Below, piece by piece: positions 4,515 to 63,859 of a stretch of DNA of 64,000 nucleotides (the stretch's first letter is position 1; every line of letters starts with the position of its first letter). The stretch is from an uncultured Bacteroidota bacterium (GTDB lineage: Bacteria > Bacteroidota > Bacteroidia > Bacteroidales > FEN-979). Location of the stretch: the NCBI GenBank assembly GCA_937900965.1, contig CALCGJ010000031.1:17341-81340 (forward strand), read 5' to 3'. The notes beneath the pieces were generated by a model. It made no database searches and had not been told where the DNA came from. It saw nothing but the letters and a program-made list of their open reading frames with translations. Position numbers and translations under genes: made by a program.

Positions 4515-4622
4515 GGGTTAGTATTTACGATTAATTATTCACAGAAATATTAATTCACATTGGTGTTCATGAATGCTGCGCATTTCGCATGTAGATTGAC
4601 GATTGCATGTATGATTTACGAT

Positions 4623-5381
4623 TTAGATTTGGGTCTTGGGTTTTGGGACTTGGGTCTTGGGACTTGGGACTTGGGACTTGGGACTTGGGACTTGGGGCTT
4701 CAACTTTCCGATGTCTTCCCAAACCGGGCTCGTATCGACAAATCCTTTGATTAGATGATCGGAAGCAAGCCGAATATAAAGATCAGTCAGCGAAAATTTA
4801 CCACTCTCCGTCATCCATGAGAAGATATCCGGATGCAGGATCTGTATCCCGCTGAAAGCAAGGCTCCTGATATCATCACCCTCCCTGCTGATCCGCTGTT
4901 CTCCTGTTTTCCGGTTCTCCCATCCGTACAGTGTATTCTTCTTATCAAAGAGGAAATACCGTGAAGTTTCTCGTTCCCTTACCGCCAGGGTGGCAAGTGG
5001 AGATTCATACCGGTGAAAACGCATCATCTTGTTGAGGTCAAGGTCGGAGAGGATATCCACATTCCGAACCACAAATGGTTCGACATCACGAAAGAACCAG
5101 GATGCTTTTTTCACGCCACCACCAGTCTCCAGCAGCTCATCCGACTCATCAGAGATTGTAATCGTCATTCCGAGATTATCATTTAGCCTGAGGAACTCCA
5201 GTATTTTCTCAGGAAAATGGTGCACATTGATAATCACATCGCGTATCCCATAACGCTTAACGTGTTCCAGTGCATGTTGCAGCAATGGTTTCCCATCAAC
5301 TACTACAAGTGCTTTAGGAATGGAATTGGTGATTGGCCGTAACCGTGTCCCCAATCCCGCTGCAAGTATCATCGCTTTCAT
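4623..5381 (-). CDS. Sugar-1-phosphate nucleotidyltransferase, MurU-like (MurNAc-1-P uridylyltransferase family); C-terminal ~24 aa are repeat-encoded
   Basis: The N-terminus MKAMILAAGLGTRLRPIT is the GxGTRL nucleotidyltransferase signature. The gene lies directly downstream of an APH-type (AmgK-like) kinase. The tail KPQVPSPKSQVPSPKTQVPKPKTQI is the translation of the heptamer array at 4629..4698. Confidence 0.75.
   Translation of the reverse strand: MKAMILAAGLGTRLRPITNSIPKALVVVDGKPLLQHALEHVKRYGIRDVIINVHHFPEKILEFLRLNDNLGMTITISDESDELLETGGGVKKASWFFRDVEPFVVRNVDILSDLDLNKMMRFHRYESPLATLAVRERETSRYFLFDKKNTLYGWENRKTGEQRISREGDDIRSLAFSGIQILHPDIFSWMTESGKFSLTDLYIRLASDHLIKGFVDTSPVWEDIGKLKPQVPSPKSQVPSPKTQVPKPKTQI
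4629..4698. repeat. Heptanucleotide tandem array (TTGGGAC/TTGGGTC) x10
   Basis: Read directly: ttgggtc ttgggtt ttgggac ttgggtc ttgggac x5 ttggggc. A degenerate period-7 continuation (gattgac gattgca ... tttacga tttagat) runs back to about 4594. Confidence 0.95.
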
Positions 5382-5396
5382 ATTCTACGAATTTAA

Positions 5397-5449
5397 CCCC
5401 TAAATCCCGTTTGCTTCAGTACGCCTGAGGCGTACTTCGCAAGGGGACT
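5397..5449 (-). repeat. Split copy of the dispersed 25-nt element (R1) carrying an inserted 19-nt hairpin
   Basis: The halves cccctaaatccc and aaggggact are separated by the hairpin agtacgcc-tg-aggcgtact (5418..5436). The copy lies in the spacer between the kinase-fusion stop and the murU-like start. Confidence 0.8.
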
Positions 5450-5475
5450 ACAAATTCCTTATCCCTTCGACCCTA

Positions 5476-5495
5476 GGACGAGGCATGCCTCGTCC
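5476..5495. repeat. Perfect 20-nt palindrome GGACGAGGCATGCCTCGTCC (hairpin family R2)
   Basis: The sequence is self-complementary. It abuts the stop codon at 5496..5498 and is followed by CTACAAT. Near-identical copies are at 10371 and 60579. Confidence 0.9.
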
Positions 5496-7037
5496 CTACA
5501 ATCGGGCAAGGTTTGTATGATTTGTGTTAACAATAATCTTATACCGTTTTATCAGGAACTCCTTCATCCTCTCTGCACAATAAACCGACCGGTGTTGTCC
5601 CCCTGTACACCCGAAGTTGACGAACAGATGTTGAAATCCACGCTCCAGATAATTTATTACGCTCTGATCAACAAGAGCTGTGGCGTTGTGAAGGAACAGG
5701 TCAACCTCAGCTTCATTCTTCAGGAAGTCTATTACGGGTTTATCCTTCCCTGTAAGTTGTTTGTACTCGTCATATCTTCCCGGATTAGGAAGGGCACGGC
5801 AGTCAAACACAAAACCCCCTCCGTTTTCTGTCGGATCTGCAGGGATGCCGTTTTTGTAGGAGAAACTCGTAATGGTTAAGGTAAGGGAACTGATGCCGGA
5901 TGCCGGATGCCGGATGCCGGGTTTTCCCCTCCCTTCATGGGGAGGGGTCAGAGGTGGGGTACCACCGGTTTCCAGTATCCGGGATCCAGGATCTGGAACC
6001 GAAGCGAAGCGGAGTTCGGCGGAGCCAATCAGCTGGTCCAGCAAGCGGAATAGCGTTGGAAGTTCCACACCGAACTCCTTTTTCTCCCACAGAGTTCGCA
6101 GATTCTTCAGGTTATTCAAGGCATATGGTATACTCTGGAGGAAATGACTCTTTTGTTCATAAAACCCACGATAACCGTAGGCTCCTAGCGCCTGGAGAAT
6201 ACGAATCAGGATAAAGCCAGGGAAATAGGTCATAAATTCCATTCTTTTCCCCGGGATATACACTTCCAGTTCATCCAGATAGAATCCAAGAAGATGATCC
6301 CTGACATGCTGAGGCAGGTCGGCTTTGGCATCATACAGCATAGATGCTATGTCATATTGCAGCGGTCCTTTTCTACCTCCCTGATAATCAATATAGTATG
6401 GGTCGTTATTAACCAGCATGATGTTCCTCGACTGAAAATCCCGGTACATAAAATAATCAGCATCAGCCTGAAGCAAGAAGGTCGAAAATGTAGAGAAGTC
6501 CTCCTCCAGGGCCTGTTCATCAAACGGAACATGAGCAAGTTTCAGGAAGTAATATTTGAAGTAGTTCAGATCCCACAGCATCGATTGACTGTCGAATGCA
6601 TGTCGCGGATAACATTTGGCGAAGTCGATCCTTTCCCCACCCCTGATCTGGAATATAGGGAGCCTCTTAAGTACTTGCTCATAAAGATTCAGTATGGCAG
6701 AAGGAAATCCGGATTCCACTTTCTTCTTTGCGACCAGTTCGGAGAATAGTGTCTGATCACCCAGATCCGATAATAAGTAGCAATTTTTCTGCAGATCCTC
6801 TGCTAAGATTTCAGGGACAGGCAGTATAAGGGATTCAAATGTACGGGTGAATGACAGAAAGGCTTCATTCTCTTTCCGGTCGTTGTTGTATACGCCAATT
6901 ACCGTTCCACGCGTTCCGCTAAGTCTGAAATAGAGTCTGTTAGACCCGGAATCCGGAAGCCTGACAATGCCGTCAGCCCTTTCGCCAAACGTTCTTTGAT
7001 ACAGCGCTTTAACCGGTTCTTCGTTGTTCATTTTCAT
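5496..7037 (-). CDS. Two-domain protein: AmgK-like aminoglycoside-phosphotransferase-fold sugar kinase fused to a RapZ C-terminal-like domain
   Basis: The N-terminal ~340 aa look like an APH-type kinase (…YLLSDLGD…, DFQSRNIML, IDYQG). The C-terminal ~130 aa match the RapZ C-terminal domain (LTITSFSYKNGIP, FDCRALPNPGRY, LTGKDKPV, GCTGGQHRSV). The linker is encoded by repeats at 5880..6010. Confidence 0.75.
   Translation of the reverse strand: MKMNNEEPVKALYQRTFGERADGIVRLPDSGSNRLYFRLSGTRGTVIGVYNNDRKENEAFLSFTRTFESLILPVPEILAEDLQKNCYLLSDLGDQTLFSELVAKKKVESGFPSAILNLYEQVLKRLPIFQIRGGERIDFAKCYPRHAFDSQSMLWDLNYFKYYFLKLAHVPFDEQALEEDFSTFSTFLLQADADYFMYRDFQSRNIMLVNNDPYYIDYQGGRKGPLQYDIASMLYDAKADLPQHVRDHLLGFYLDELEVYIPGKRMEFMTYFPGFILIRILQALGAYGYRGFYEQKSHFLQSIPYALNNLKNLRTLWEKKEFGVELPTLFRLLDQLIGSAELRFASVPDPGSRILETGGTPPLTPPHEGRGKPGIRHPASGISSLTLTITSFSYKNGIPADPTENGGGFVFDCRALPNPGRYDEYKQLTGKDKPVIDFLKNEAEVDLFLHNATALVDQSVINYLERGFQHLFVNFGCTGGQHRSVYCAERMKEFLIKRYKIIVNTNHTNLARL
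5892..5919. repeat. Heptanucleotide tandem array (GATGCCG) x4 followed by the hairpin CCCCTCCC-ttcat-GGGAGGGG (5926..5947)
   Basis: Read directly. It lies inside the inter-domain linker of ORF 5496..7037. A further period-7 stretch, atccggg atccagg atctgga, is at about 5976..5996. Confidence 0.9.
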
Positions 7038-7071
7038 GTTTTTTTCATGAGGTTATGAGTCCATTTTATTG

Positions 7072-7096
7072 CCCCTAAATCCCCTGAAGGGGACTT
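7072..7096 (-). repeat. Dispersed 25-nt element R1 (plus strand reads CCCCTAAATCCCCTGAAGGGGACTT)
   Basis: This is the exact reverse complement of the copy at 39170..39194. It overlaps the AddA-like stop codon (7095..7097). A second hairpin, CCCCC-ttta-GGGGG (7100..7113), follows it and is itself translated as …GPLKGE. Confidence 0.9.
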
Positions 7097-16317: not shown

Positions 16318-17302
16318 TGTACGGTCGAACGTTACTGCCAACCAGGAGATCCACAAGGAGTTCGGGGGTGTGGTCCCTGAGCTGGCATCCCGTGCTCATC
16401 AGCAAAATATAGTACCGGTGATTGAAGCCGCAATCCGGAGAGCAAATATACGTAAAAATCAACTTGCTGCGGTGGCCTTTACACAGGGCCCGGGGCTTCT
16501 TGGCTCGCTTCTCGTTGGATCATCATTTGCTAAAAGCTTTGCCCTCGCGATGGAGATTCCCCTGATCGAAGTTGACCATATGCAGGCGCACATCCTGGCG
16601 CATTTCCTGGAAGATCCGCAGAACCAGCGTCCTCTGCCTTCATTCCCGTTTGTCTGTCTGACAGTTTCCGGTGGCCATACCCAGATTGTATTGGTGCGTG
16701 ACTATTTTGATATGGAGGTGCTTGGTCAAACCATCGATGATGCTGCAGGAGAGGCTTTTGACAAATCAGCAAAGATCCTTGGACTCCCCTACCCCGGAGG
16801 TCCAATAATCGACAAGCTTGCTGCAGGAGGTGACCCCGTACGGTTTTCCTTCTCCCGCCCGAACATCCCGGCACTTGATTACAGCTTCAGCGGACTTAAA
16901 ACTTCAATCCTTTATTTTATCAGGGATGAGCTGAAAAAGGATCCTGCATTCATCGAGGAAAATAAAAGGGATCTCTGTGCATCGATCCAGGCAACAATTG
17001 TTGAGATATTGATGGGGAAGTTGAAGCTTGCAGTCGAAGAGATACGCGATACGCGATATGCGATCCCGGATCACGGATCGCGGATCGTTGATGTGGCAAT
17101 CGCCGGTGGCGTATCGGCAAACTCTGCCTTAAGGAAGGCACTGCTGGAGACCGCAGACAAGGAGGGCTGGAATGCCTTTATACCGCAGTTTGAGTACACA
17201 ACAGATAATGCAGCGATGATTGCTGTTGCAGGGTATTTCAAATTCCTGAAGGGCGATTTCACGAAGCAGTCTGCAATATCCTATGCCCGAAGCAGATGGT
17301 GA
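16247..17302 (+). CDS. tsaD: tRNA N6-adenosine threonylcarbamoyltransferase TsaD, with an in-frame repeat-derived insertion
   Basis: The N-terminus is MPPFILGIETSCDDT. Other family motifs are VDHMQAHI, LTVSGGHTQ, GEAFDK and AIAGGVSAN. The insertion IRDTRYAIPDHGSRI is encoded by the heptamers at 17041..17089. Confidence 0.92.
   Translation: MPPFILGIETSCDDTSASVVEGTIVRSNVTANQEIHKEFGGVVPELASRAHQQNIVPVIEAAIRRANIRKNQLAAVAFTQGPGLLGSLLVGSSFAKSFALAMEIPLIEVDHMQAHILAHFLEDPQNQRPLPSFPFVCLTVSGGHTQIVLVRDYFDMEVLGQTIDDAAGEAFDKSAKILGLPYPGGPIIDKLAAGGDPVRFSFSRPNIPALDYSFSGLKTSILYFIRDELKKDPAFIEENKRDLCASIQATIVEILMGKLKLAVEEIRDTRYAIPDHGSRIVDVAIAGGVSANSALRKALLETADKEGWNAFIPQFEYTTDNAAMIAVAGYFKFLKGDFTKQSAISYARSRW
17041..17089. 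repeat. Heptanucleotide tandem array (GATACGC GATACGC GATATGC GATCCCG GATCACG GATCGCG GATCGTT) inside tsaD
   Basis: Read directly. The GATCRCG unit is the same one found in the intergenic arrays at 25499..25526 and 25582..25616. Confidence 0.9.
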
Positions 17303-21329: not shown

Positions 21330-22550
21330 CTAATCCCTCTTTGCTTCAAGCATCTTCAGTCCGAATGCTTTGCCAAAGTCATGACATTGCTTGATTGTCT
21401 CTTCGTGTGGAGTAAACCGGATCATCAACCCATCGGTAAATACATTCAGCCGGAGAACCTTAAGTGCGGAGTCAATGATTTTAGCAGCTTCCCCGCTCCA
21501 TCCAAAAGATCCAAACGAGGCAGCGATTTTGTTCCGGTCCCTGATTGGGTTAATAAGGGCAAATACCTGGTATACAGGCAATAACACGTTCTGACTGAAG
21601 GTTGGGCTTCCCAGGATAATTCCGGATGCTTCAATAATTTTTTGCTCTATCACCGCTAATTCCATAGTTTCAATATCGCAGAGGTCTACATCAAACGAAC
21701 CAGCCATCCTGATCCCTGCAGCGATCTCTTTAGCAATCAAACCCGTATTTTTATACGCTGAAACATAGCCAATGAAAACCCTGTTGGGAAGTGGAAAAAC
21801 CATAGCCTCTCTGGCATACTGTTCAGAGAGATCCACATACTTTTGCCAATTCTTACGGAGGATAGGACCGTGTCCGGGGCACACTATGTCGATCTCAAGA
21901 GACCGTATCTTACTGATTGCCTGTACCATAAACCGACTGTATGGTTTCATGATCACATCGAAATAATAGCGGTAGGCATCATCAAAATCCCCAACCAGGT
22001 CATCAAACATCTCTTCCCTGGCATAGTGACAACCGAATGAATCACACGTAAACAGGATCTTATCTTCTTCAAGGTATGTATAGATGGAATCGGGCCAGTG
22101 AAGGTTCGGAGCCCCGATAAACCTGAGTTTCTTGTTTCCCAGGTCTAGCGTGTCACCATCCTTTACAATCAGATGAGGCACCTCCATTCCCAATTGATCT
22201 TTCAGGTATCGGATCGCATTTCCGCTTCCCACAACTTTCGCTGAAGGAGCTATCTCAAGCAGATCCTTTAATGTTCCGGAATGATCAGGTTCCGTGTGGT
22301 TCATCACGATGTAGCTGATCTCGGAAGGATCAGTCATTTCCCTCACTTTTGCCAGGTAAGTATCACGGAAAGTAGCTTTTGTGGTTTCAATAATACATTT
22401 CTTATCCGCCCGGATAAAATAGGAGTTATAGGTTGTTCCGAACTCTGTTGCCATCACTACGTCAAACGTGATCAGGTCAGGGTCAAGCACACCGATCCAG
22501 GAAACATCTTTGGTAACCTTTAAGATTTTATTGCCATTCATTGCCATCAT
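21330..22550 (-). CDS. FprA-family flavodiiron protein (metallo-beta-lactamase-like plus flavodoxin-like domains)
   Basis: It has the di-iron motif NHTEPDHSG and a C-terminal flavodoxin-like segment GIILGSPTF. The first codons (MMAMNG) lie within the 9-mer array. Confidence 0.85.
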   Translation of the reverse strand: MMAMNGNKILKVTKDVSWIGVLDPDLITFDVVMATEFGTTYNSYFIRADKKCIIETTKATFRDTYLAKVREMTDPSEISYIVMNHTEPDHSGTLKDLLEIAPSAKVVGSGNAIRYLKDQLGMEVPHLIVKDGDTLDLGNKKLRFIGAPNLHWPDSIYTYLEEDKILFTCDSFGCHYAREEMFDDLVGDFDDAYRYYFDVIMKPYSRFMVQAISKIRSLEIDIVCPGHGPILRKNWQKYVDLSEQYAREAMVFPLPNRVFIGYVSAYKNTGLIAKEIAAGIRMAGSFDVDLCDIETMELAVIEQKIIEASGIILGSPTFSQNVLLPVYQVFALINPIRDRNKIAASFGSFGWSGEAAKIIDSALKVLRLNVFTDGLMIRFTPHEETIKQCHDFGKAFGLKMLEAKRD

Positions 22551-22644
22551 TGTTCATCATTGTTCATCATTGCACATCATTGCCATCATTGCCATCATTG
22601 CCATCATTGCCATCATTGCCATCATTGCCATCATTGCACATCAT
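22528..22644. repeat. Tandem 9/10-nt array (TGCCATCAT x7 perfect, flanked by the 10-mers TGTTCATCAT and TGCACATCAT)
   Basis: Read directly. Together with (TCCCTACT)x3 at 22655..22678, it fills the whole parC-fprA spacer. Confidence 0.95.
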
Positions 22645-22677
22645 TCTCTCCACCTCCCTACTTCCCTACTTCCCCAC

Positions 22678-25452
22678 TTATAGTTCCAGTTCCAGCTGTT
22701 CGTCGCTGATGGTTTTGGGTTCAGCGTTCCGGGTTCCGCGTTTCGCGTTCGGCGTTTTGGGTTCAGCGTTCGGCGTTCCGCGTTTCGCGTTTCGCGTTTG
22801 GCGTTCGGCATTTGGTGTTTCGCGTTTGGCGTTAGGCGTTTCGGTTTCCGGATTGCCGGTTGATGGTTCTTTGGGCTTTTTCCCAACTTTTTTAACCTTC
22901 TCCTCGACCTTCGACCCTGTCACCTCGACCTTCGACCCTGTCACCTCGACCCTGGTCTCCTGTTCCAGCCAATTCACCTTCTTCACCGCGTGACCGGTGA
23001 GTCGTTTCCCTTTTGCTTTATAGCCTTTTAGCCCAATGAATTCGGAGATGTTGATCTCTTCCTCTGCTGCCCCTTTGCTCTTCTGTTTCATATCAAAGAG
23101 AATCTGCAAACGTGGATACAAATCGGCAGAGATAGAGACAAAATGGTCTGAGTCATCGAGGTAGGCAAGCTTTTTCTCTGTTATTTCCGGACTAAACCGT
23201 TTTATGTAATATAACTTCGTCTTTGTATCCTGATAGATCACAGTATAGATTTTCCGGGGATCAAATTTCTCAATCCTGAACATATCTTCATCAAAATGGG
23301 TGGAGAGATCAAAAGAGGTGAACCGGAAGTGGCCTGACCGGGTGAAGGTGATAATCCTGTCGGCTCCTGAAAAAGCTCCGAGAAGGGTACCCCTATCCTC
23401 GGCGTTCAGTCTCATCACAGTATCATCATACCAGATGTTGAGAGATCCCAGTGTGGAGACACCTTCCTGGCGAATCTCGATCTTCTTGATTGCATACTTT
23501 GTAAGAATATTCCCCATGGAACTTCTCCCTTTGATAGCCAGGTCGGCAAAATTAAAATCAAACGAGCTCTTTTTGATCCGGGGTTTCGGCTTCAGGTCGA
23601 CCTTAACGACCTCTGCTTCGCCATTAGGGTTTGCGGAGAAGTAAAGCACTTTTGAGCCCAGGGTCCCCTTGGTTAAGTTATATTCCTTGTCGCGCGTTAC
23701 ACCTGTCACGGCAAAGCGCTTGATCATAATCTTCCCATTCTTACCATCTCTGTAAATCAGATTGTAGATCGTCCGGATGTCATTCTTCATGAAGACCTGA
23801 ATATGGATTACATCGTGACCGATAAAAACCTTGTCGGCTACTTTTGTCACCATAAAAGTGCCGTCACTACGGATGACGATAATGTCGTCAATATCTGAAC
23901 AATCGCATATAAATTCATCACGACGGAGGGAGGTTCCGGCAAATCCCAATTCCCGGTTGATATACAGTTTCACGTTTGCCGCAGCTACCTTTACCGCTTC
24001 AATAGATTCAAAATTGCGCAATTCAGTATGCCTGTCGCGATTTTTCCCGTATTTCTTCCTGATCTGCCGAAAATGCTCGATGGCAAAATCGGTCAGGTGG
24101 GCCAGGTGATTGCTCACCTCTTCTGTCTCCTGCCTGATGCCGTTGATCACATCATCGGCTTTGTTGGAATTAAATTTTGAGATTCGTTCAATGGGGATCT
24201 TCCGGAGTTTTTTGATATCCTCTTCGCTCAGCGGCCTGATGAAATCCTTTTCAAACGGCTTCATCCCGCTCTTGATAGCCTTATCTATATCCTCGTCCGT
24301 CTTGCATTTCTTAATCCCTTCGTAGACCTCATTTTCAATGAAGATTTTTTCGATGGATGCATAATGCAACTGCTCATTCAGCTCCTCCAGCCGTATCTCC
24401 AATTCTCTTTTCAGTAAGTAGACCGTGTGTGCTGTAGATATCCTCAGGATTTCCTTAACACCGACAAATCTTGGCTTTCCATTCTCGATAACACAGCAAT
24501 TGGCGGAAATTGGCACCTCACACTGTGTGAATGCATAGAGAGCATCCATTGTAGTATCCGGAGAGACACCAGGTGTCAGGTGGATCAGAATCTCTACATC
24601 CCTGGCGGTGTTATCATCGATCTTCCGAATCTTGATCTTTCCTTTGTCATTGGCATTGAGGATCGAGTCAATAACAGACTCTGTAGTTGTGCCATATGGG
24701 ATTTCATTGATCACCAATGTCTTTTTATCAACCTGGCTAATCCTGGCACGCAACCGGACCTTCCCGCCTCGCAACCCATCGTTGTACTTTGAGACATCAG
24801 CCAGTCCGCCTGTCGGAAAATCGGGGAAGAGTTCAAAATCCTTCCCCTGCAACACTTTGATGGAGGCATCAATCAGTTCGTTGAAATTATGCGGCAGAAT
24901 CCTGGAAGCAAGTCCCACAGCGATCCCCTCAACTCCCATTGCCAGCAACAGAGGAAACTTAACCGGCAGGGTGACCGGTTCTTTGTTCCGTCCGTCGTAG
25001 GAGGTTTTCCATACCGTAGTCTTTGGGTTGAAAACCACGTCGAGCGAAAATTTAGAGGGGCGTGCTTCAATATACCTTGGTGCTGCAGCACTGTCACCTG
25101 TATGGATATTTCCCCAGTTGCCCTGAGTATCAACCAGGAGATCCTTTTGCCCAAGCTGAACAAGTGCATCCCCAATAGAGGCATCACCATGAGGATGGTA
25201 TTTCATGGTATGTCCGATGATGTTGGCGACCTTGTTATACCGTCCGTCATCCAGCTCTTTCATAGCATGAAGCAAGCGACGCTGGACAGGTTTCAGTCCG
25301 TCAAGAATTTCCGGAACAGCCCGTTCCAGGATAACATAGGAGGCATAATCCAGGAACCAGTTCTGGTACATAACATCCAAATGGATTGCCTCTTCAAGCT
25401 TTCCTGATTCAAGTTCCGGGTGTTCGCCGTTAAGATTTTGTTCGTCGTTCAA
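22678..25452 (-). CDS. parC: DNA topoisomerase IV subunit A (ParC) with a ~95-aa repeat-encoded C-terminal extension
   Basis: The sequence MYQNWFLDYASYVILERAVPEILDGLKPVQRR…HPHGDASI is the Bacteroidota ParC type. I prefer the TTG start at 25452 (MNDEQNLNGEHPE…). The GTG at 25587 would read through hairpin and heptamer repeats. Confidence 0.85.
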   Translation of the reverse strand: MNDEQNLNGEHPELESGKLEEAIHLDVMYQNWFLDYASYVILERAVPEILDGLKPVQRRLLHAMKELDDGRYNKVANIIGHTMKYHPHGDASIGDALVQLGQKDLLVDTQGNWGNIHTGDSAAAPRYIEARPSKFSLDVVFNPKTTVWKTSYDGRNKEPVTLPVKFPLLLAMGVEGIAVGLASRILPHNFNELIDASIKVLQGKDFELFPDFPTGGLADVSKYNDGLRGGKVRLRARISQVDKKTLVINEIPYGTTTESVIDSILNANDKGKIKIRKIDDNTARDVEILIHLTPGVSPDTTMDALYAFTQCEVPISANCCVIENGKPRFVGVKEILRISTAHTVYLLKRELEIRLEELNEQLHYASIEKIFIENEVYEGIKKCKTDEDIDKAIKSGMKPFEKDFIRPLSEEDIKKLRKIPIERISKFNSNKADDVINGIRQETEEVSNHLAHLTDFAIEHFRQIRKKYGKNRDRHTELRNFESIEAVKVAAANVKLYINRELGFAGTSLRRDEFICDCSDIDDIIVIRSDGTFMVTKVADKVFIGHDVIHIQVFMKNDIRTIYNLIYRDGKNGKIMIKRFAVTGVTRDKEYNLTKGTLGSKVLYFSANPNGEAEVVKVDLKPKPRIKKSSFDFNFADLAIKGRSSMGNILTKYAIKKIEIRQEGVSTLGSLNIWYDDTVMRLNAEDRGTLLGAFSGADRIITFTRSGHFRFTSFDLSTHFDEDMFRIEKFDPRKIYTVIYQDTKTKLYYIKRFSPEITEKKLAYLDDSDHFVSISADLYPRLQILFDMKQKSKGAAEEEINISEFIGLKGYKAKGKRLTGHAVKKVNWLEQETRVEVTGSKVEVTGSKVEEKVKKVGKKPKEPSTGNPETETPNAKRETPNAERQTRNAKRGTPNAEPKTPNAKRGTRNAEPKTISDEQLELEL
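22711..22857. repeat. Heptanucleotide tandem array, consensus CGTTYSG, x21 (147 nt)
   Basis: Read directly: ggttttg ggttcag cgttccg ggttccg cgtttcg cgttcgg … cgtttcg gtttccg gattgcc. On the minus strand it is translated as a 7-aa periodic peptide. Confidence 0.95.
22903..22951. repeat. 21-nt (3 x 7) tandem repeat CTCGACC-TTCGACC-CTGTCAC x2.3
   Basis: Read directly. It encodes VEVTGSK VEVTGSK in the ParC tail. Confidence 0.9.
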
Positions 25453-25498: not shown

Positions 25499-25526
25499 GA
25501 TCGCGGATCATGGATCGCACATCGCA
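25499..25526. repeat. Heptanucleotide array GATCGCG GATCATG GATCGCA CATCGCA
   Basis: Read directly. Confidence 0.85.
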
Positions 25527-25581: not shown

Positions 25582-25616
25582 TATCACGGATCACGGATCG
25601 CGGATCGCGGATCAAA
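25582..25616. repeat. Heptanucleotide array TATCACG GATCACG GATCGCG GATCGCG GATCAAA
   Basis: Read directly. It uses the same unit as the tsaD insertion. Confidence 0.9.
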
Positions 25617-34120: not shown

Positions 34121-34187
34121 AGGTGACAAGGTAACAAGGTGAAAAGGTGACAAGGTACAAATTCACGTTATTCACGTTATTCACGAT
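34121..34187. repeat. Tandem 8-mer (AGGTGACA-type x5) followed by 9-mer (ATTCACGTT x3)
   Basis: Read directly: aggtgaca aggtaaca aggtgaaa aggtgaca aggtacaa | attcacgtt attcacgtt attcacgat. It fills the spacer between the stop at 34118 and the ATG at 34200. Confidence 0.9.
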
Positions 34188-35513: not shown

Positions 35514-35578
35514 CGCAGAGCACAGAGCACAGATTAGTTTTGTTTAATCCTGAGCCCTGTGCCCTGAGCCCTGCGCAA
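35503..35578. repeat. Two heptamer arrays forming an imperfect inverted pair (ATAGCGC ATAGCGC AGAGCAC AGAGCAC … TGAGCCC TGTGCCC TGAGCCC TGCGCAA)
   Basis: Read directly. It starts inside the last codons of the MFS gene (stop at 35511..35513). A related word, GCTCAGGGCACAGG, recurs at about 60624..60637. Confidence 0.85.
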
Positions 35579-44615: not shown

Positions 44616-44626
44616 TTCTTATTGAA

Positions 44627-44715
44627 ACACAGATTACACAGAAAACACAGATTAACACAGATAATGAAATCCGTGATCATCTGTGTTGCCGAAGGCATCT
44701 GTGTCATCCGTGTTC
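44627..44715. repeat. Four direct ACACAGAWW 9/10-mers followed by inverted copies (ATCTGTGT x2, CCGTGAT/CCGTGTT)
   Basis: Read directly: acacagatt acacagaaa acacagatta acacagataa tgaaatccgtgatcatctgtgttgccgaaggcatctgtgtcatccgtgttc. It could fold as a long imperfect stem-loop. Confidence 0.85.
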
Positions 44716-55710: not shown

Positions 55711-55722
55711 TACCCCTTCCTG

Positions 55723-59367: not shown

Positions 59368-60546
59368 ATGAAGAACAGATTGATTCTCTATAGACTAGCG
59401 TTCATTTTCGTTTCCTTACTTTTTTTGTATCCGGGCTGTAAGCCCAAAACTGAGGAGCAACAGGCGCCCCCTGCCCTTAACGTGATGGCCATAAAGGGAA
59501 CCCGTGTTCCCCTATCAATGAATATGGTTGGCCTGGCCGAAGGGATTCCCACAGTCGAGATCCGCGCACGTGTGGAGGGATATCTGGAAAACTGGTCATT
59601 TCGTGAAGGATCCATTGTACAGAAAGGGCAGGTTCTCTTTACAATAGAGAAAGCTGAATACATCAATAATCTCGATTACGCAACTGCCGATCTGGCTAAC
59701 AAAGAAGCAGCCTGGGAGTATGCTCAGCTCAATGTGGCCAGGCTAAAACCTCTGGTTGCTGCCAATGCCATCAGTCAGAATGACTATGACGTTGCTATGA
59801 CCCAGGAGAAACAGGCAAAGGCAGCTGTAGCCAGTGCGAAAGCTGATCTGCAGCAGGCAAATCTAAACCTCTCATACACCACCATGGCCTCCCCCATTAC
59901 AGGATATATCGGCTCCGTGCAAATCCGCCCGGGAAACCTTGTCGGGCGGGGTGAAAGCACTCTGCTTGCGACTGTTTCTGCCATTGATCCCATTTATGTT
60001 AATTTCCAGATGAATGAAACCAGTTATCTGTCGATCATGAGTTGGATAATCGAGAACAAAGCCAAACTGAAAGGGAAAGAGCAGCTTAAGGATAATAATT
60101 CTATCCCTGTTTACATGCTACTCTCTACCAAACAAACGTATCCCTTTGGAGGGACCATTGATTTCATCGGACGAGCTATCGATCCAGCAACAGGAACCAT
60201 TGCGTTGAGAGCAGAGTTCCCAAACAAAGACGGACTTATCAAACCAGGGTCCTATAGTGAGATCACATTGATCCTTGGAGTGGAGGATAACGGGATTCTC
60301 ATCCCGCAATCCAGTGTACAGCCAATCCAGGACAGAAATTTTGTTTTTATTCTCGATTCAGCCAATAAGGTCAAACGGCTACCAATTATTACAGGACAAC
60401 ATATCGAAAACATGGTTGTTGTGATGAAAGGGTTGAACATTGGAGACCGGATCCTTCTGGAGGGATATCAGAAAATACGGGATGGGATGGAAGTAACGCC
60501 CATTATGGTAAAAGATACATTGAGGGTGCCTGAGATCATAAAGTAG
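59368..60546 (+). CDS. Efflux RND transporter periplasmic adaptor (membrane fusion protein) lipoprotein
   Basis: The ATG at 59368 gives MKNRLILYRLAFIFVSLLFLYPGC|KP. The HlyD/AcrA-type motifs are RVEGYLENWSFREGSIVQKGQVLFTIE and ASPITGYIG. Confidence 0.88.
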   Translation: MKNRLILYRLAFIFVSLLFLYPGCKPKTEEQQAPPALNVMAIKGTRVPLSMNMVGLAEGIPTVEIRARVEGYLENWSFREGSIVQKGQVLFTIEKAEYINNLDYATADLANKEAAWEYAQLNVARLKPLVAANAISQNDYDVAMTQEKQAKAAVASAKADLQQANLNLSYTTMASPITGYIGSVQIRPGNLVGRGESTLLATVSAIDPIYVNFQMNETSYLSIMSWIIENKAKLKGKEQLKDNNSIPVYMLLSTKQTYPFGGTIDFIGRAIDPATGTIALRAEFPNKDGLIKPGSYSEITLILGVEDNGILIPQSSVQPIQDRNFVFILDSANKVKRLPIITGQHIENMVVVMKGLNIGDRILLEGYQKIRDGMEVTPIMVKDTLRVPEIIK

Positions 60547-60579
60547 GGTTGAGGGTCAAAGGTCAAGGGTCAAGGTAGA
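60545..60579. repeat. Heptanucleotide array AGGGTTG AGGGTCA AAGGTCA AGGGTCA AGGTAGA
   Basis: Read directly. It starts within the MFP stop codon. The same unit occurs at 63797..63831. Confidence 0.9.
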
Positions 60580-60598: not shown

Positions 60599-60638
60599 TA
60601 GGGAAGAAGAATAAATAGCGCCGAGCTCAGGGCACAGG

Positions 60639-60661
60639 AAGTCCCCTTTAGGATTTAGGGG
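60639..60661 (+). repeat. Degenerate R1 element AAGTCCCCTTTAGG-ATTTAGGGG
   Basis: It has 23 of the 25 positions of R1 (a 2-nt deletion and one substitution), in the same orientation relative to the downstream gene as the other intra-operon copies. Confidence 0.8.
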
Positions 60662-60662
60662 T

Positions 60663-60697
60663 GAATTCGTAAATCGTAAATCGAAATTTGAAATATG
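60663..60697 (+). repeat. Heptanucleotide leader array GAATTCG TAAATCG TAAATCG AAATTTG AAATATG ending in the permease start codon
   Basis: Read directly. The related word ATTCGTAAATCGAAATG directly precedes the AddA-like start (minus strand, 10311..10330). Confidence 0.85.
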
Positions 60698-63600
60698 CTA
60701 CAACAATTTATACAACGCCCGATTCTCTCTTTCGTAATAGCCATTCTGATCACCCTGGTAGGTGTGCTGAGCCTGATGGTCCTTCCTGTCGCACAATATC
60801 CTGATGTTGTTCCGCCTACGGTCCAGGTAACGGCTTATTACCCTGGCGCCAGCGCTGAGGTGGTGCAAAAGACTGTTGCAGTCCCTCTGGAGGAACAGAT
60901 CAACGGTGTGGAGAACATGATGTACATGACTTCCCAATGTGCCAACGACGGATCCTGTAACATCACCGTCTATTTCGAAGTGGGGACAGATCCTGATATG
61001 GCAACGGTTAACACCCAGAATCGTGCACAACGTGCGTTTAGTGTACTGCCTGCTGCAGTTACACAGGGAGGGGTGATCGTTATGAAACGAAATCCGAGTA
61101 TCCTTATGCTCTATGCACTTACTTCGACGGATACTTCGTACAATTTTGAATTTCTGTCCAACTATGCCCAGATCAATATTGTCAATACGATGAAGCGTAT
61201 TGAGGGTGTAGGGGATGTATCTCTGCTCGGGGGTGACGACTATGCCATGCGCATCTGGCTCAACCCCGACCGGATGGCCGGTCTCAGTATCACTACCGAT
61301 GATGTAGCCAGCGCTATAATGGATCAGAACCTGGAAGCAGCTGCCGGGGCTATCGGCAAAAATCCAGCTATCCCCGGACAGGAACTCGCCTATATCATTC
61401 GGGCTGAAGGCAGGTTACAATCTATTGAGGAGTTTAACAACATCATCATCAAAACAAAAATTGACGGCTCCATCGTGCGGATGGAAGATATTGCCAGGGT
61501 AGAACTTGGGCTGAAAACATACGATGTTCGTACCCGATTCAATCAAAAGCCCTCCCCTTTCATTGCTGTATACCAGTCACCCGGATCCAATGCAACCCAG
61601 ATACGGGCAGATTGTGACGCAATGATGATGAGTCTGGCCAGCCAGTTTCCGCCCGGACTGGAGTATGAGATAGGGCTCGACACGGTTGAATTTGTGGATG
61701 CATCTGTCCATGATGTACTGAAGACACTTCTTGAAGCATTTATACTTGTTTTTCTCGTCGTCTTCATCTTTCTCCAGGATTGGCGGGCAACCCTGATTCC
61801 TGCCGTTACTGTACCTGTCTCCCTGATTGGTGCATTAGCTGCATTCTCGCTTTTCGGCTTTTCGATCAATATGCTTACCCTCTTTGCACTGGTATTGGCT
61901 ATCGGCATCGTGGTGGATGACGCGATTGTGGTCCTTGAGGCGGTGCAGGAGAAGATAGATGAACATGGAATGAGTCCGCTGGAGGCCACCCGAGAGACCA
62001 TGAAAGAGATCGCTCCGGCGATCTTCACCATCACCCTGGTTCTTTCTGCGGTCTTTATCCCAGTATCGTTCCTTGGAGGAACCACCGGGCAAATGTATAA
62101 ACAGTTCGCACTCACCCTCACCTCCTCGATCGTCATATCCGGATTGCTTGCACTTACCTTAAGTCCGGCGATGTGTGTCCTGCTTCTGAAGCCGAAACCT
62201 GAACGAAAAGGGCTGATCGGTAAATTCTTCGATGGATTTGACAGAGGATTCAATTACACGACAAATAAATACATCGCTATTGTAAACAACTTCCTGCATC
62301 ACATCAGCAGACCTCTCATTTTCCTTGGGATAGTCACCATCCTGGTAGTGGTTGTCATGAAGCTCCTGCCAACCGGATTTTTACCTGAAGAAGACCAGGG
62401 GTATTTCTTTGTCAATGTGATCTCTCCTAAAGGGGTCTCGCTACAGATGACCGACCAGGTGATGCATAGTATTGAAAAAATACTTGAAGAGACTCCGGGT
62501 GTTCAGTCCTACTCCTCCGTCCCGGGGTACAGCATCCTTGACGGGACCGTGAGTACCACGAGTGGAGCGGTCTTTGTCAAACTCCTCCCGTGGGATCAGC
62601 GAACGAAAGATTCGTTGCAAGTGGAGTCGATCATCGCCAGGTTACAGACGAAACTTAACCAAATCCCTAACGGAATTTGTATGGCATTCAATGCACCTGC
62701 AATCTCCGGTTTGGGAACCACCGGAGGTCTTGAGTTACAGTTGGAAGACAAGATCGGCGCCGGTCTGGATAAACTGGCAGAGGTTACAACTAATTTTGCA
62801 GTAGCAGCCATGCAGAACAAAACGCTTTCTAATGTATTCACCGGTTTCCGGGTCGATATCCCACAATATTTCCTTACGGTAAATAAAGATAAAGCCAAAA
62901 CGATGGGGGTCCCGGTCAGTGATATCTACGGTGCTCTCCAGGCCCAGTTCGGAAGCCTCTATATCAACGATTACAACCAATTTGGAAAGTCCTACAGGGT
63001 GATTATTCAGGCCGATGCGGTCTACCGGTCCAACCCCGAAGATGTGAACCTGATCTATGTCAGGTCCAGCAGGGGTGACATGGTGCCACTGGGGACACTT
63101 GTCAGCCTTGAACCGATTGAAGGCCCGGATGTGGTGAGGCGGTTCAACCTCTTTAGCTCTTCCAGTTTTACTATTGCACCTGCACCTGGATACTCATCCG
63201 GACAGGCTATCGAAGCTGTTGCAGAGATAGCAAAAACGACTTTGCCTTTCGGATTTGGTTACGAATATTCGGGACTGACACGACAGGAGTTGATTGCAGG
63301 AAACCAGGCCCCGTTTGTTTTTGCACTCTGTTTCGTCTTTGTCTACCTGCTCCTGGCTGCCAAATATGAGAGCTGGTTCCTTCCGATACCCATCCTGCTT
63401 GCAATGCCTTTCGGCATCTTAGGCGCTTTCGGATTGCAGTGGATAAGTGGTTTGCAGAACAACATTTACGCACAAATCGGACTGATCATGCTGATCGGAC
63501 TGGTGGCAAAGAACGCCATTCTCATTATCGAATATGCCAGGCAAAAGCATGAAGAGGGCATGGATCTGATCAAAGCCGCTGAAGTAGCTGCGCGGCTCCG

Positions 63601-63859
63601 TTTCAGGCCTATCCTGATGACCTCTTTCGCTTTCATCCTGGGTGTGGTACCATTGGTTATTGCAGGTGGAGCCGGTGCTGCCAGCAGGCATGCACTCGGA
63701 ACCTCAGTGTTTGGCGGAATGCTGTTGGCCACTATCTGCGGTGTCCTTGTGGTACCTGCTCTCTATGTGGTATTTCAGCGACTTGAGAATTGGATAAAGG
63801 GTAAGGGTCAAGGGTCGAGGGTCGAGGGTCAAGAAAAAAATGGCAATTCATGGCAATAA
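60695..63859 (+). CDS. Efflux RND transporter permease (HAE1/AcrB family) with a ~20-aa repeat-encoded C-terminal tail
   Basis: The N-terminus is FIQRPILSFVIAILITLVG. It is 12-TM and about 1035 aa of AcrB-type sequence (…VVDDAIVVLE…, …GLVAKNAILIIEYA…). The tail KGKGQGSRVEGQEKNGNSWQ is encoded by the heptamers. Confidence 0.92.
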   Translation: MLQQFIQRPILSFVIAILITLVGVLSLMVLPVAQYPDVVPPTVQVTAYYPGASAEVVQKTVAVPLEEQINGVENMMYMTSQCANDGSCNITVYFEVGTDPDMATVNTQNRAQRAFSVLPAAVTQGGVIVMKRNPSILMLYALTSTDTSYNFEFLSNYAQINIVNTMKRIEGVGDVSLLGGDDYAMRIWLNPDRMAGLSITTDDVASAIMDQNLEAAAGAIGKNPAIPGQELAYIIRAEGRLQSIEEFNNIIIKTKIDGSIVRMEDIARVELGLKTYDVRTRFNQKPSPFIAVYQSPGSNATQIRADCDAMMMSLASQFPPGLEYEIGLDTVEFVDASVHDVLKTLLEAFILVFLVVFIFLQDWRATLIPAVTVPVSLIGALAAFSLFGFSINMLTLFALVLAIGIVVDDAIVVLEAVQEKIDEHGMSPLEATRETMKEIAPAIFTITLVLSAVFIPVSFLGGTTGQMYKQFALTLTSSIVISGLLALTLSPAMCVLLLKPKPERKGLIGKFFDGFDRGFNYTTNKYIAIVNNFLHHISRPLIFLGIVTILVVVVMKLLPTGFLPEEDQGYFFVNVISPKGVSLQMTDQVMHSIEKILEETPGVQSYSSVPGYSILDGTVSTTSGAVFVKLLPWDQRTKDSLQVESIIARLQTKLNQIPNGICMAFNAPAISGLGTTGGLELQLEDKIGAGLDKLAEVTTNFAVAAMQNKTLSNVFTGFRVDIPQYFLTVNKDKAKTMGVPVSDIYGALQAQFGSLYINDYNQFGKSYRVIIQADAVYRSNPEDVNLIYVRSSRGDMVPLGTLVSLEPIEGPDVVRRFNLFSSSSFTIAPAPGYSSGQAIEAVAEIAKTTLPFGFGYEYSGLTRQELIAGNQAPFVFALCFVFVYLLLAAKYESWFLPIPILLAMPFGILGAFGLQWISGLQNNIYAQIGLIMLIGLVAKNAILIIEYARQKHEEGMDLIKAAEVAARLRFRPILMTSFAFILGVVPLVIAGGAGAASRHALGTSVFGGMLLATICGVLVVPALYVVFQRLENWIKGKGQGSRVEGQEKNGNSWQ
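63797..63838. repeat. Heptanucleotide array AAGGGTA AGGGTCA AGGGTCG AGGGTCG AGGGTCA AGAAAAA, followed by ~10-nt repeats (ATGGCAATTC-type, 63839..63880)
   Basis: Read directly. Confidence 0.9.

Follow-up and report, generated by a model that had tools for sequence, protein, structure and literature searches.

Heptanucleotide repeat arrays in gene spacers and protein tails of an uncultured Bacteroidales genome

The 64-kb stretch of DNA analysed here (the window) belongs to the genome of an uncultured freshwater Bacteroidales and contains numerous tandem arrays of 7-nt units. These arrays are probably heptamer microsatellites of the LSSR/STRR kind, generated by slippage and kept only where selection tolerates them. 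The Bacteroidota origin that had been proposed for the segment is borne out by its closest genomes, which are Bacteroidales and Bacteroidota MAGs, and by the presence of SusC/SusD, PorP/SprF and Por_Secre_tail genes.

Census and placement of the arrays

TRF returned 18 period-7 rows in the window, an approximately 14-fold excess over the chance baseline: 40 third-order Markov shuffles of the window averaged 1.3 such rows, and none gave more than 4. Period 8 gave 6 rows and period 9 gave 8, against 1.4 each in the shuffles. The heptamer tracts listed in the original prediction all exist within a few bases of their claimed coordinates, as judged by TRF and inspection of the sequence; the tract at 25499-25526 falls under the TRF threshold and was seen in the sequence and as repeat family D4. 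The 7-nt periodicity, which had been called strict, is real, but matches range from 74 to 100%. At 37146-37216 and over most of 44663-44715, proposed as further arrays, ACACAGAT words are scattered in direct and inverted orientation and form no tandem repeat. In non-coding DNA from which the TRF tracts had been removed the period-7 autocorrelation was 0.296 against a baseline of ~0.265, which points to decayed arrays.

Only 4.5% of the window is non-coding. Tracts that are mostly non-coding nevertheless number 14 of 40 at a TRF score ≥30 (1.7 expected) and 9 of 19 at a score ≥40 (0.8 expected), values reached in none of 5000 random placements (p<2e-4 in both cases), and the enrichment at gene ends relative to random positions is thereby confirmed. 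The claim that arrays sit at almost every gene boundary is overstated because only ~11 of the 38 junctions bear one; at junctions of at least 100 nt a TRF tract is present in 7 of 14. Exact limits at start and stop codons also fail as a rule, with many tracts not stopping at these codons and six heptamer tracts lying within coding sequence. Every intragenic heptamer array falls in a tail, linker or loop, as defined by Pfam domain limits and PDB alignment, the sites being the ParC-like, MurU-like and RND tails, the APH/PapZ_C linker and a TsaD loop. Folded alone as RNA, the arrays give z values of 0 to +1.8, no better than shuffles or worse than them, and the suggestion that they form RNA 3'-end or processing structures is not supported. 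Arrays close to start codons are rich in A/T and have unusually little structure (z = +1.2 to +1.8); these could be selected rather than merely tolerated.

Arrays at individual loci

The features are listed in Table 1. A MurU-like nucleotidyltransferase owes its C-terminal tail of 25 residues, KPQVPSPKSQVPSPKTQVPKPKTQI, to the TTGGGAC array, which on the + strand matches the G3N4 quadruplex motif by regular expression. MurU-like homologues of 226-236 aa are without the array tail, two of them bearing a short seed tail, and relatives at 71-79% identity carry a short KPQIPGSKTQNP tail compared with the 10 units of the window, a series that may represent the birth and expansion of the array. An allele shorter by 7 nt, found in L087 and in proteins P0122 and P0125, ends in ...QVPRPKSQNPRPKSKS, stays at 252 aa and is Pro/Lys/Ser/Gln-rich as before. 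Two TAA codons 7 nt apart (4623-4625 and 4616-4618) close the two successive frames in which the window allele and the -7 nt allele are read, and as a result of this phasing the latter keeps a full-length protein. The GATGCCG array is found in the APH/PapZ_C inter-domain linker at residues ~371-380 (Pfam: APH 23-254, PapZ_C 384-507), which also contains a weaker TCCAGGA tract at 5971-5993. The 88-nt cassette is present in the window and in L087, and missing from L088, L089, L091 and L092. It carries AGGGTCG-type seeds, its junction folds as RNA with z = -3.55, and it is a candidate vehicle for spreading repeat seeds.

Table 1. Repeat features of the window, with the evidence for each
Position	Strand	Feature	Basis
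4587..4623	-	decayed heptamer tract TAAATCG TAAATCA ...	sequence; TRF 19-mer row
4629..4700	-	TTGGGAC x10.3 (+ strand); sense (GTCCCAA)x10	TRF, translation
5405..5492	-	88-nt cassette: nested hairpins and proto-array AGGGTCGAAGGGATAAGG, GGGA direct repeat on either side	strain comparison, sequence
5892..5920	-	(GATGCCG)x4 (TRF x4.1), perfect copies	TRF, Pfam, translation
17041..17087	+	(GATACGC)x3.4 then (GATCGCG)x3.7 in tsaD	TRF, translation
22530..22645	-	(GATGGCAAT)x12, sense	TRF score 173, sequence
22655..22679	-	(AGTAGGGA)x3, sense; TAG within unit; directly 3' of ParC-like stop codon	TRF, sequence
22714..22850	-	~20 heptamer units (CGAAACG, CCGAACG, CGGAACG ...)	TRF periods 7, 14, 28; translation
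22902..22951	-	21-mer GGTCGAG GTGACAG GGTCGAA, x2.4	TRF, 100% matches
25499..25526	.	GATCGCG-family units, ~4, degenerate	sequence, repeat family D4
25583..25614	.	(ATCACGG/ATCGCGG)x4.6	TRF
34121..34185	+	(AGGTGACA)x5 then (ATTCACGTT)x2.8	TRF, sequence, junction table
35503..35573	+	ATAGCGC/AGAGCAC (35503-35533) and CCTGAGC/CCTGTGC (35549-35573) units	TRF, sequence, motif scan
44625..44662	+	(ACACAGATT)x3.9; inverted ATCTGTGT copies further downstream	TRF, inverted repeat I15
60545..60579	+	AGGGTCA-family units, ~4-5	TRF row 60552-60575; sequence; gene map
60665..60692	+	(TCGTAAA)x3 = TAAATCG array, immediately 5' of RND pump start codon	TRF row 60667-60687; cassette alignment
63797..63833	+	(AAGGGTC)x5.4	TRF, Pfam
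63840..63874	+	(ATGGCAATTC)x3.4 across RND stop and outer-membrane factor (OEP) start codons	TRF 69% matches, sequence

The tsaD tract coincides with a 12-residue loop insertion relative to E. coli TsaD (alignment to PDB 4ydu). The GATGGCAAT array runs as far as the ODP/flavodoxin start codon, and the N-terminus of the gene product, MAMNGN, is array-derived; the array RNA is less structured than shuffles (z = +1.82), and L001 has one additional 9-nt unit (+9 nt; proteins P0147/P0148). The ~20 heptamer units encode a linker, ETPNAKRETPNAERQTRNAKRGTPNAEPKT..., within the tail of the ParC-like protein (topoisomerase IV subunit A); the frame is maintained across it, so that the C-terminal motif ...EQLELEL is kept. 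Motifs of the QM[KS]LE[LF] type end the ParC tails of 80 Bacteroidota loci and the motif class is conserved. The 21-mer encodes VEVTGSK repeats in the same tail, and P0130, of 917 aa as opposed to 924 aa, represents an allele that is shorter by precisely 21 nt (7 residues). Upstream, the degenerate GATCGCG-family units lie in the parC-like 5' leader region and adjoin a TAnnTTTG-type -7 box at 25530, while the ATCACGG/ATCGCGG array separates the divergent promoters of parC-like and tRNA-Arg (tRNA 25651-25724; -7 box 25630), the boxes being located by motif scan.

The AGGTGACA array begins 3 nt past the TGA of a Por_Secre_tail gene and together with ATTCACGTT occupies the spacer before an MFS gene. 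The TAG stop of the latter is spanned by the ATAGCGC/AGAGCAC units, which are partly complementary to the CCTGAGC/CCTGTGC units on the other side of a TAGTTTTG box (RNA fold z = -2.69); an inverted single-copy version is found at 60612-60638 (inverted pair I21). The ACACAGATT/ATCTGTGT feature (RNA fold z = -5.89) differs in kind from the heptamer arrays. At the RND locus, AGGGTCA-family units start at the TAG stop of the adaptor (MFP) gene. The AAGGGTC array encodes KGKGQGSRVEGQ in the pump tail, past the end of ACR_tran at residue 1028 (compare the tails of P0131-P0133), and matches the G3N4 quadruplex motif. The ATGGCAATTC array has the word ATGGCAAT in common with the array at 22.5 kb. On inspection of the sequences, most units close to a stop codon were judged to include a stop triplet.

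Strain variation and recurrence of words

Pairwise comparison of strains ~99.9% identical over ~220 kb, with one length difference read from clustered proteins, gave five distinct length differences. Three are whole-unit changes within arrays (-7 nt in TTGGGAC, +9 nt in the 9-mer and the in-frame -21 nt in the ParC-like 21-mer), and the other two are the 88-nt cassette and a single base. Arrays therefore do change by whole units, as had been put forward for checking, and the pattern of these indels argues for slippage as the cause, in line with the slippage-prone part of the original prediction. Most arrays are invariant among the near-identical strains sampled. The closest relative, L007 (81% ParC identity), has 7.1 arrays per 10 kb, more than the window, with different units at different positions; conservation of window arrays was not found in it except in the ParC-like tail, where a related AGGGTCG/GGTCACG array occupies the position equivalent to the 21-mer. 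In L025, L032, L045 and L084 the ParC tails are coded by heptamers of unrelated units. Array turnover is fast.

The recurrence of words at distant loci is statistically real, with seven pairs of arrays in the window having the identical unit in common where 1.17 would be expected (p ~0.0005). Alignment reveals a hairpin-plus-leader cassette 5' of three start codons, in one copy of which TAAATCG is expanded, and five of the seven TAAATCG occurrences are non-coding; a seed within this dispersed cassette has expanded locally into the TAAATCG array. The earlier argument for dispersal or copying in addition to slippage is upheld in that there is evidence of both, through this three-copy cassette and the 88-nt cassette present or absent among strains.

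Some words also form arrays elsewhere. AGGGTCR x3 arrays occur in at least 120 metagenome contigs of 36-74% GC and coincide with TAAATCG-class arrays in four, one of them Thermodesulfobacteriota-like; AGGGTCA, TCGTAAA and AGGGGCA arrays are found together in one Thermodesulfobacteriota-like contig, and GGATGCC adjoins CGACCCT in contigs of ~70% GC. A TTGGGAC-class array of 16 units is present in L009, and AATTACG in L007 and L019. Some metagenome matches are eukaryote telomere-like, and the cross-genome statistics of word sharing are weak after allowing for base-composition bias. Identical words forming arrays in other phyla are not predicted by random local slippage alone.

Origin of the arrays and comparison with known repeats

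Replication slippage would make the arrays, in a lineage that prefers 7-nt units; the preference for seven is left without explanation by this reading. Arrays would expand and contract continually and survive only where harm is small: in the DNA between genes as far as the flanking start and stop codons and, within proteins, in disordered tails at the C-terminus, in linkers between domains and in loops at the surface. The arrays are located in such places, and this distribution suggests the selective filter. Where a stop codon forms part of the seed, the array would repeat that stop in all three frames and so insulate the gene end. Within a tail, a heptamer array would give the same 7-residue repeat whatever the frame, so that a one-unit change would do no harm ahead of phased stops, the situation in the MurU-like tail; in the ParC-like protein, where a conserved C-terminal motif is to be kept, only three-unit (21-nt) changes are seen. 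Seeds may ride on small cassettes scattered between genes, each a hairpin with an A/T-rich leader, and then be expanded on site, a route observed for TAAATCG and presumed for the other words. The arrays themselves are probably without a dedicated function, and their side effects are unstructured spacers or leaders and low-complexity protein tails.

It is unlikely that the arrays are instead mRNA cis-elements, acting as multivalent sites for RNA-binding proteins (S1, Csp, CsrA-like) or as deliberately unstructured spacers, and in either case adjusting the initiation of translation and the coupling between cistrons in a phylum without Shine-Dalgarno pairing. Such a role, proposed by MacGregor et al. 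as an RNA-binding-protein site for TAACTGA arrays, would suit the start codons abutted by TAAATCG (RND pump), GATGGCAAT (ODP/flavodoxin) and ATGGCAATTC (OEP), the poor folding of these regions, the non-coding enrichment of TAAATCG and the co-directional gene pairs at 9 of 10 array-bearing junctions, although 30 of all 38 junctions are co-directional. However, there are at least 12 unrelated units, too many for one binding specificity to fit; L007 keeps neither the units nor their positions, copy number varies among near-identical strains, and arrays also occur past stop codons, in coding tails and in the TsaD loop. A sequence-specific generator or mobile micro-element that writes a small set of heptamers and spreads it, perhaps between phyla through horizontal transfer, with local slippage secondary, is quite improbable. 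The unit-sharing pairs, both cassettes and the arrays in metagenome contigs, L009, L007 and L019 favour it, but the majority of units are private to one array, length changes are the single- or three-unit steps typical of slippage, and the window shows no candidate enzyme or transposase associated with its arrays. Sharing across phyla, with its telomere-like matches and compositional bias, could also reflect convergent sequence preferences, for G3N4 units among others.

In E. coli K1, neuO undergoes phase variation driven by heptanucleotide repeats, and with this precedent the unit-number polymorphism might indicate contingency loci at which genes are switched on and off. That is very improbable, and this switching part of the original prediction is largely refuted: the arrays occupy 3' ends, linkers and spacers of housekeeping genes (parC-like, tsaD, murU-like) rather than the promoter spacers or 5' coding parts of genes for surface antigens, the -7 nt MurU-like allele is still full-length, and the ParC-like change is in frame. 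Short-read contigs do end at arrays (L002 at 22530, L003 and L004 at 25515), but the arrays are almost certainly not assembly or sequencing artefacts as numerous samples, assembled independently with different pipelines (ENA MEGAHIT and SPAdes; Logan), yield them base for base.

As slippage-generated microsatellites, the window repeats are best read as members of the LSSR (long simple sequence repeat) class, which includes the cyanobacterial STRRs. They resemble the latter in their tandem heptamer units, and the label STRR-like is fair in that period 7 is dominant, units are diverse and arrays stand back to back in spacers. None of the published heptamer units occurs in tandem within the 64-kb window. 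The case for novelty in Bacteroidota, for which the original prediction knew of no equivalent description, is weakened, since heptamer arrays, TAACTGA and others, were previously described in five Bacteroidetes (PMC4679880), and over-representation of heptamers across prokaryotes was reported by Mrazek 2007, according to the accounts of that work in PMC4679880 and PMC4692102. The last two papers give the same repeat class and the same slippage explanation. Heptamer arrays are already known from cyanobacteria, Xanthomonas, Beggiatoaceae and these five Bacteroidetes, and this genome is therefore a good example of the class rather than the source of a new kind of element.

Abundance and placement of the arrays

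The gene calls, taken from metagenome contigs 99.5-100% identical to the window, comprise 39 features. One group of genes encodes AddA/AddB-like nucleases, a MurU-like nucleotidyltransferase, an APH/PapZ_C protein, TamB and TsaD. The window also contains a ParC-like topoisomerase IV subunit A and a tRNA-Arg, PorP/SprF and OmpA genes, an RND efflux operon, and a large locus for starch utilisation, which includes SusC/SusD and several amylases with Por_Secre_tail domains. Bacteroidota hallmark genes are found, and the closest GTDB genome is the MAG 'Bacteroidetes bacterium PowLak16_MAG5' (ParC identity 81%), followed by MAGs of Bacteroidales and Lentimicrobiaceae, none above 69%. On sequence relatedness, these matches assign the segment to an uncultured freshwater Bacteroidales-like bacterium.

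Tandem Repeats Finder (TRF) recovers all of the heptamer tracts of the original prediction except one degenerate tract, which is visible in the sequence itself. Eighteen TRF rows have a period of 7, compared with a mean of 1.3 (maximum 4) in 40 third-order Markov shuffles of the window. For periods 8 and 9 the counts are 6 and 8 (1.4 each in the shuffles), so that period 7 is the commonest; the sequence covered is the 64 kb and a few kb of flanks. Two of the predicted longer-unit arrays, in contrast, are not tandem, being made up of ACACAGAT words scattered in direct and inverted orientation. The element to which these words belong may be an operator or attenuator.

Non-coding DNA makes up 4.5% of the window, and the tracts are concentrated in it, as expected from the proposed enrichment at gene ends. 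At a TRF score of >=30, 14 of 40 tracts are mostly non-coding (1.7 expected, p<2e-4), and at >=40 this applies to 9 of 19 (0.8 expected, p<2e-4). The description of arrays at almost every gene boundary was nevertheless overstated, since only about 11 of the 38 junctions contain one; of the 14 junctions 100 nt or longer, 7 contain a TRF tract. The period-7 autocorrelation of non-coding DNA lacking TRF tracts is 0.296 against a baseline of ~0.265, and decayed arrays may make up much of the spacer DNA.

The uncalled ORF that follows the tRNA-Arg probably encodes a small membrane protein, and this long junction is therefore not truly non-coding. Short-read metagenome contigs begin or end repeatedly at arrays or hairpin modules, so that the repeats fragment assemblies of the source organism. 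Caution is warranted in general, as such arrays split short-read contigs and displace gene-call ends in MAGs.

Positions of the features discussed (window coordinates unless another contig is named; z, RNA fold relative to shuffles)
Feature	Position	Description
Array-bearing spacer	4515-4622	z = +1.2
TTGGGAC, quadruplex pattern	4631-4682
Structured junction	5382-5495	z = -3.6
88-nt cassette	5405-5492	Intergenic; nested hairpins, GGACGAGGCATGCCTCGTCC plus AGTACGCCTCAGGCGTACT inserted within a AGTCCCCTT...GGGATTTAGGGG module; flanked by a GGGA direct repeat
Hairpin modules (families AGTCCCCTTCAGGGGATTTAGGGG, GGACGAGGCATGCCTCGTCC, CAGCCGCAATAAATTGCGGCT, GTAGGGGCAATTCATGAATTGCCCCTAC)	5392-5408, 7070-7111, 39161-39196, 55721-55752, 55777-55812, 60640-60662; 5476, 10371, 60579; 10399, 25465; 52757-52784	Short GC stems dispersed in spacers
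GATCGCG/GATCACG family	17.0 kb; twice at 25.5 kb
1-nt insertion	19375	In two strains (contigs L088, L089); start call of the cation-efflux gene displaced, 211 vs 229 residues
9-mer array	22530-22645	z = +1.8 (region)
ParC-like C-terminal linker	22678-22720	Homologues at loci L008-L086
AGGGTCR family	22.9, 60.5, 63.8 kb	Also in the 88-nt cassette and the ParC-like tail of L007
Degenerate tract	25499-25526	Missed by TRF
Uncalled ORF	25725-26030	In the 352-nt 'spacer' after tRNA-Arg; starts MRRLNKIQKRILVIGILLL...
Structured junction	35514-35618	z = -2.7
ATAGCGC and CCTGAGC arrays	35.5 kb	Inverted single-copy counterpart at 60.6 kb
ACACAGAT/ATCTGTGT element	37132-37216; 44625-44718	Direct and inverted words with a common 22-nt element TTAGAACAYKGATGACACAGAT; found upstream of two starch-locus genes of the amylase family; strong predicted hairpin in the 44.6-kb copy, z = -5.9
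Predicted longer-unit arrays	37146-37216; most of 44663-44715	Not tandem
Structured junction	44616-44736	z = -5.9
Contig ends	22530, 25515, 39172, ~58300-58380	Contigs L002, L003 and L004, L097, L102-L105
AGGGTCR, quadruplex pattern	63799-63821
ParC-like ORF of L007	L007 12581-12709	Continues through 54-nt repeats to the contig end; hairpin GTCATTGCGAGGAACGCAGTGACGAAGCAA and peptide NVIARNAVTKQ inside the repeats
folC of L155	L155 2140-3588	In-frame AGGGTCA, AGGGGCA, TCGTAAA and ATTTTCG array insertions

Arrays within genes and their variation

Six heptamer tracts are intragenic, each located in a part of the protein that is able to vary. By translation, the array at the end of the MurU-like gene encodes a 25-residue tail, KPQVPSPKSQVPSPKTQVPKPKTQI, that is absent from homologues of 226-236 aa. 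Most homologues have no such tail, relatives at 71-79% identity carry a short one of the KPQIPGSKTQNP type and the window reaches ten units, a series that shows the birth and growth of an array. Two tracts in the ParC-like tail encode VEVTGSK and ETPNAKR... repeats. The remaining three lie in the RND pump tail past the end of the ACR_tran domain, in the linker between the APH and PapZ_C domains, and in a TsaD loop, where the array coincides with 12 residues inserted in comparison with E. coli TsaD. Because a 7-nt repeat gives the same heptapeptide in all three frames, such arrays can be absorbed into essential genes, here into the topoisomerase IV tail, the TsaD loop and the MurU-like tail.

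The ParC-like protein ends in ...EQLELEL, and a QM[KS]LE[LF]-type C-terminal motif terminates the otherwise hypervariable ParC tails of 80 Bacteroidota homologues. This arrangement suggests that the C-terminus serves as a docking peptide held by a flexible tether. Length changes in the tail have to preserve the frame, and the one observed is exactly three units. The linkers of Bacteroidota ParC-like proteins are 6-187 residues long, acidic or lysine-rich and hypervariable, and end in a conserved short motif such as DDPAQMKLEL, GQMSLF or EQLELEL.

Strains ~99.9% identical to the window were compared over ~220 kb of pairwise alignment and through clustered protein sequences, giving five distinct length differences. 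Three are whole-unit changes in arrays, as anticipated if unit number is polymorphic: one unit less in the TTGGGAC array (-7 nt, contig L087), one unit more in the 9-mer array (+9 nt, contig L001), and the loss of one 21-mer of three heptamers from the ParC-like tail (-21 nt; deduced from the shorter protein P0130, 917 aa vs 924 aa). The others are the presence or absence of the 88-nt cassette and a single base. The -7 nt allele ends in ...QVPRPKSQNPRPKSKS, with unchanged composition and a protein still of 252 aa; it is harmless because TAAATCG-like units come after the array and place TAA codons 7 nt apart.

The arrays also turn over rapidly. The window has 2.8 period-7 rows per 10 kb and its closest relative, the 12.7-kb locus L007, has 7.1, compared with a mean of 0.70 in 79 other Bacteroidota loci (1.35 Mb), 38 of which have none. 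The few other array-rich lineages include Croceimicrobium (L077), a Lentimicrobiaceae MAG (L055) and L040. DNA-level alignment between the window and L007 is confined to the ParC-like gene and the tRNA, and outside the ParC-like tail L007 has no units or positions in common with the window. Within this tail, related AGGGTCG and GGTCAC units of L007 begin at the same codon as in the window. Four further loci (L025, L032, L045 and L084) have ParC tails coded by heptamers with unrelated units, which indicates repeated, independent origins.

Recurrent words and the origin of the arrays

The original prediction had argued for dispersal or copying in addition to slippage, and the evidence supports this. 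Exact units are shared by seven array pairs (1.17 expected, p ~0.0005); when one mismatch is allowed there are 21 pairs against a null mean of 18. The hairpin modules often directly follow stop codons, and at three genes one of them runs into an A/T-rich leader that reaches the start codon. In the RND pump copy of this module and leader, a TCGTAAA seed has grown to three units. This expansion, together with the inverted single-copy counterpart of the 35.5-kb arrays, supports copying plus local slippage. No exact copies of the modules were found in 80 related GTDB loci. Both the window and L087 have the 88-nt cassette, which is missing from four strains ~99.5% identical to the window; in its organization it is reminiscent of very small mobile repeats.

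Some of the words extend beyond the phylum. A metagenome scan for AGGGTCR x3 returned at least 120 contigs, with a GC content of 36-74% among the matches listed, and in the contigs listed period 7 accounts for 399 rows, periods 8 and 9 for 94 and 124. In L155, a Thermodesulfobacteriota-like contig whose AccD is up to 89% identical to proteins of Deltaproteobacteria/Thermodesulfobacteriota MAGs, folC contains in-frame array insertions. Judged from such matches, heptamer words common to different phyla appear to be real. The neighbouring accD of L155 has a heptamer-coded tail, and the words in this contig are the same as those in the window. Three other matches (L123, L170, L176) contain long AAACCCT arrays of the plant/algal telomere type mixed with ACCCTCG and CCCTGAG variants, and are probably eukaryotic subtelomeres, not bacterial DNA.

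The arrays are probably heptamer microsatellites generated by slippage and filtered by selection, because they show unit-wise polymorphism, rapid turnover, independent origins and confinement to dispensable sequence, and because stop codons adjoin stop-containing units and the tails are frame-robust. Assembly or sequencing error, a concern attached to the original prediction, has a negligible likelihood: many samples, assembled independently, yield arrays of identical sequence, which are therefore not artefacts. The unit-number alleles might instead reflect contingency switching, as was suggested earlier. A contingency locus has its simple sequence repeat in the promoter spacer or 5' coding region, where a change in unit number switches expression, typically of surface or virulence genes. 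The arrays described here are associated with housekeeping genes, in whose 3' tails, linkers and spacers they lie, and the -7 nt and -21 nt alleles retain full-length proteins; phase-variable loci were rejected on this basis and switching is considered very unlikely. CRISPR and other spaced-repeat arrays were ruled out by the head-to-tail units without spacers and by the Rfam scan.

A role as cis-regulatory RNA elements is unlikely. Three junctions do fold better than shuffles, with a structure predicted to come from hairpin modules or inverted array pairs, but arrays taken by themselves have no more predicted structure than shuffles (z = +0.2 for the ParC-like array). Predicted to be unstructured as RNA, they were rejected as terminators or processing structures, one of the functions first put forward. 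At gathering thresholds the Rfam scan matched tRNA-Arg alone, so the arrays are not explained by any known RNA family. Three of the four canonical G4 motifs (by motif match) fall in TTGGGAC or AGGGTCR arrays; the G3-4 N3-4 pattern with at least four G-tracts fits only these two, most arrays not being G-rich. When units were compared by eye with the strand of their genes and with GC skew, the G-rich ones showed no consistent preference for the sense strand or for one replication strand. Bacteroidetes-type TAnnTTTG boxes occur mostly in array-free junctions, and most array-bearing junctions may therefore lie within operons. A sequence-specific or mobile generator of the arrays, to which the shared exact units and strain-variable cassette could be attributed, is quite unlikely. 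In its widest form, a small vocabulary (AGGGTCR, TAAATCG/ATTTTCG, GATGCCG/GGATGCC) carried on tiny strain-variable hairpin cassettes and common to the Bacteroidales lineage, the Thermodesulfobacteriota-like MAG and ~70% GC contigs would represent an unrecognised, sequence-specific repeat-writing or micro-mobile-element system that spreads horizontally, and not plain slippage. This proposal is unlikely; if true, the system would also seed new disordered tails and loops in essential genes.

Read as slippage products under selection, the arrays provide a population-resolved example of heptamer microsatellites that fill the spacers of a compact bacterial genome up to codon boundaries and change in whole units faster than other kinds of indel. 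They also offer a concrete route for the origin of low-complexity protein tails and linkers.

Comparison with known heptamer systems

The STRR (short tandemly repeated repetitive) heptamers, reportedly described by Mazel et al. in 1990 from Calothrix, Nostoc and Anabaena, have no known function; PMC4692102 also mentions these sequences. They resemble the window in having tandem heptamers with several units per genome, mostly in non-coding spacers and often as adjacent differing arrays, and the window does contain tandem heptanucleotide arrays dispersed in non-coding DNA. However, the hosts of STRRs are heterocystous (filamentous) cyanobacteria and not Bacteroidota, and several window arrays are coding, giving rise to protein tails, linkers or loops. 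The units of STRR1-3 (CCCCAGT, TTGGTCA, CAACAGT) form no tandem dimer in the window in any register on either strand. A literature search on STRRs and Elhai-type small dispersed repeats gave nothing useful. In the phase-variable neuO of an E. coli K1 prophage, a translated 7-nt repeat at the 5' end switches the enzyme on or off. As in the window, the product is a heptapeptide repeat whose frame is kept by three-unit changes alone, whereas the window repeats lie in 3' tails or linkers and involve no gene switching.

The long simple sequence repeats (LSSRs) of Mrazek, Guo and Shah (2007), as summarized in later papers, have units of 5-11 nt with heptamers commonest and slippage as the proposed origin, and a polymerase footprint was suggested by these authors for the 7-nt preference (PMC4679880, PMC4692102). 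In these summaries, LSSRs exceed the length expected by chance, are intergenic and phylogenetically sporadic, and are richest among the genomes listed in Burkholderia, cyanobacteria, actinobacteria and Xanthomonas; the survey so described did not sample the lineage of the window. The window arrays are similar in their excess over shuffles at periods 7, 8 and 9, within the 1-11 nt unit range, and in being mainly heptameric and enriched in intergenic DNA. The G-rich heptamers GGGAATC of Xanthomonas and GGGGAYT of Nostoc (Rehm et al., 2015; PMC4692102) likewise form arrays near ORF ends that vary in length between close relatives, and TTGGGAC and AGGGTCR match the same G3N4 quadruplex pattern (motif match). 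In those genomes one unit is dominant, whereas the window has a dozen, most of them not G-rich, and neither GGGAATC nor GGGGAYT occurs as a tandem in it.

A precedent within the phylum is the TAACTGA direct repeat, found in marine Beggiatoaceae, cyanobacteria and five Bacteroidetes (MacGregor, 2015; PMC4679880), the same word thus occurring in distant phyla. Many of these arrays are directly upstream of start codons, a placement also found here, and further heptamer arrays occur in spacers of Gramella and Aequorivita (PMC4679880), so the class was already recorded in Bacteroidetes. The window differs in belonging to a freshwater Bacteroidales-like MAG and in its many units and coding insertions; TAACTGA itself is present as five single copies, none in tandem. 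The novelty originally claimed for Bacteroidota is thereby weakened, and the findings open no new element class and leave the preference for a unit length of 7 unexplained. STRRs, heptamer-dominated LSSRs, GGGAATC/GGGGAYT (PMC4692102) and TAACTGA with other heptamers in five Bacteroidetes (PMC4679880) are already known; new in detail are the lineage, the wide range of units, and coding insertions documented with their alleles in the population.
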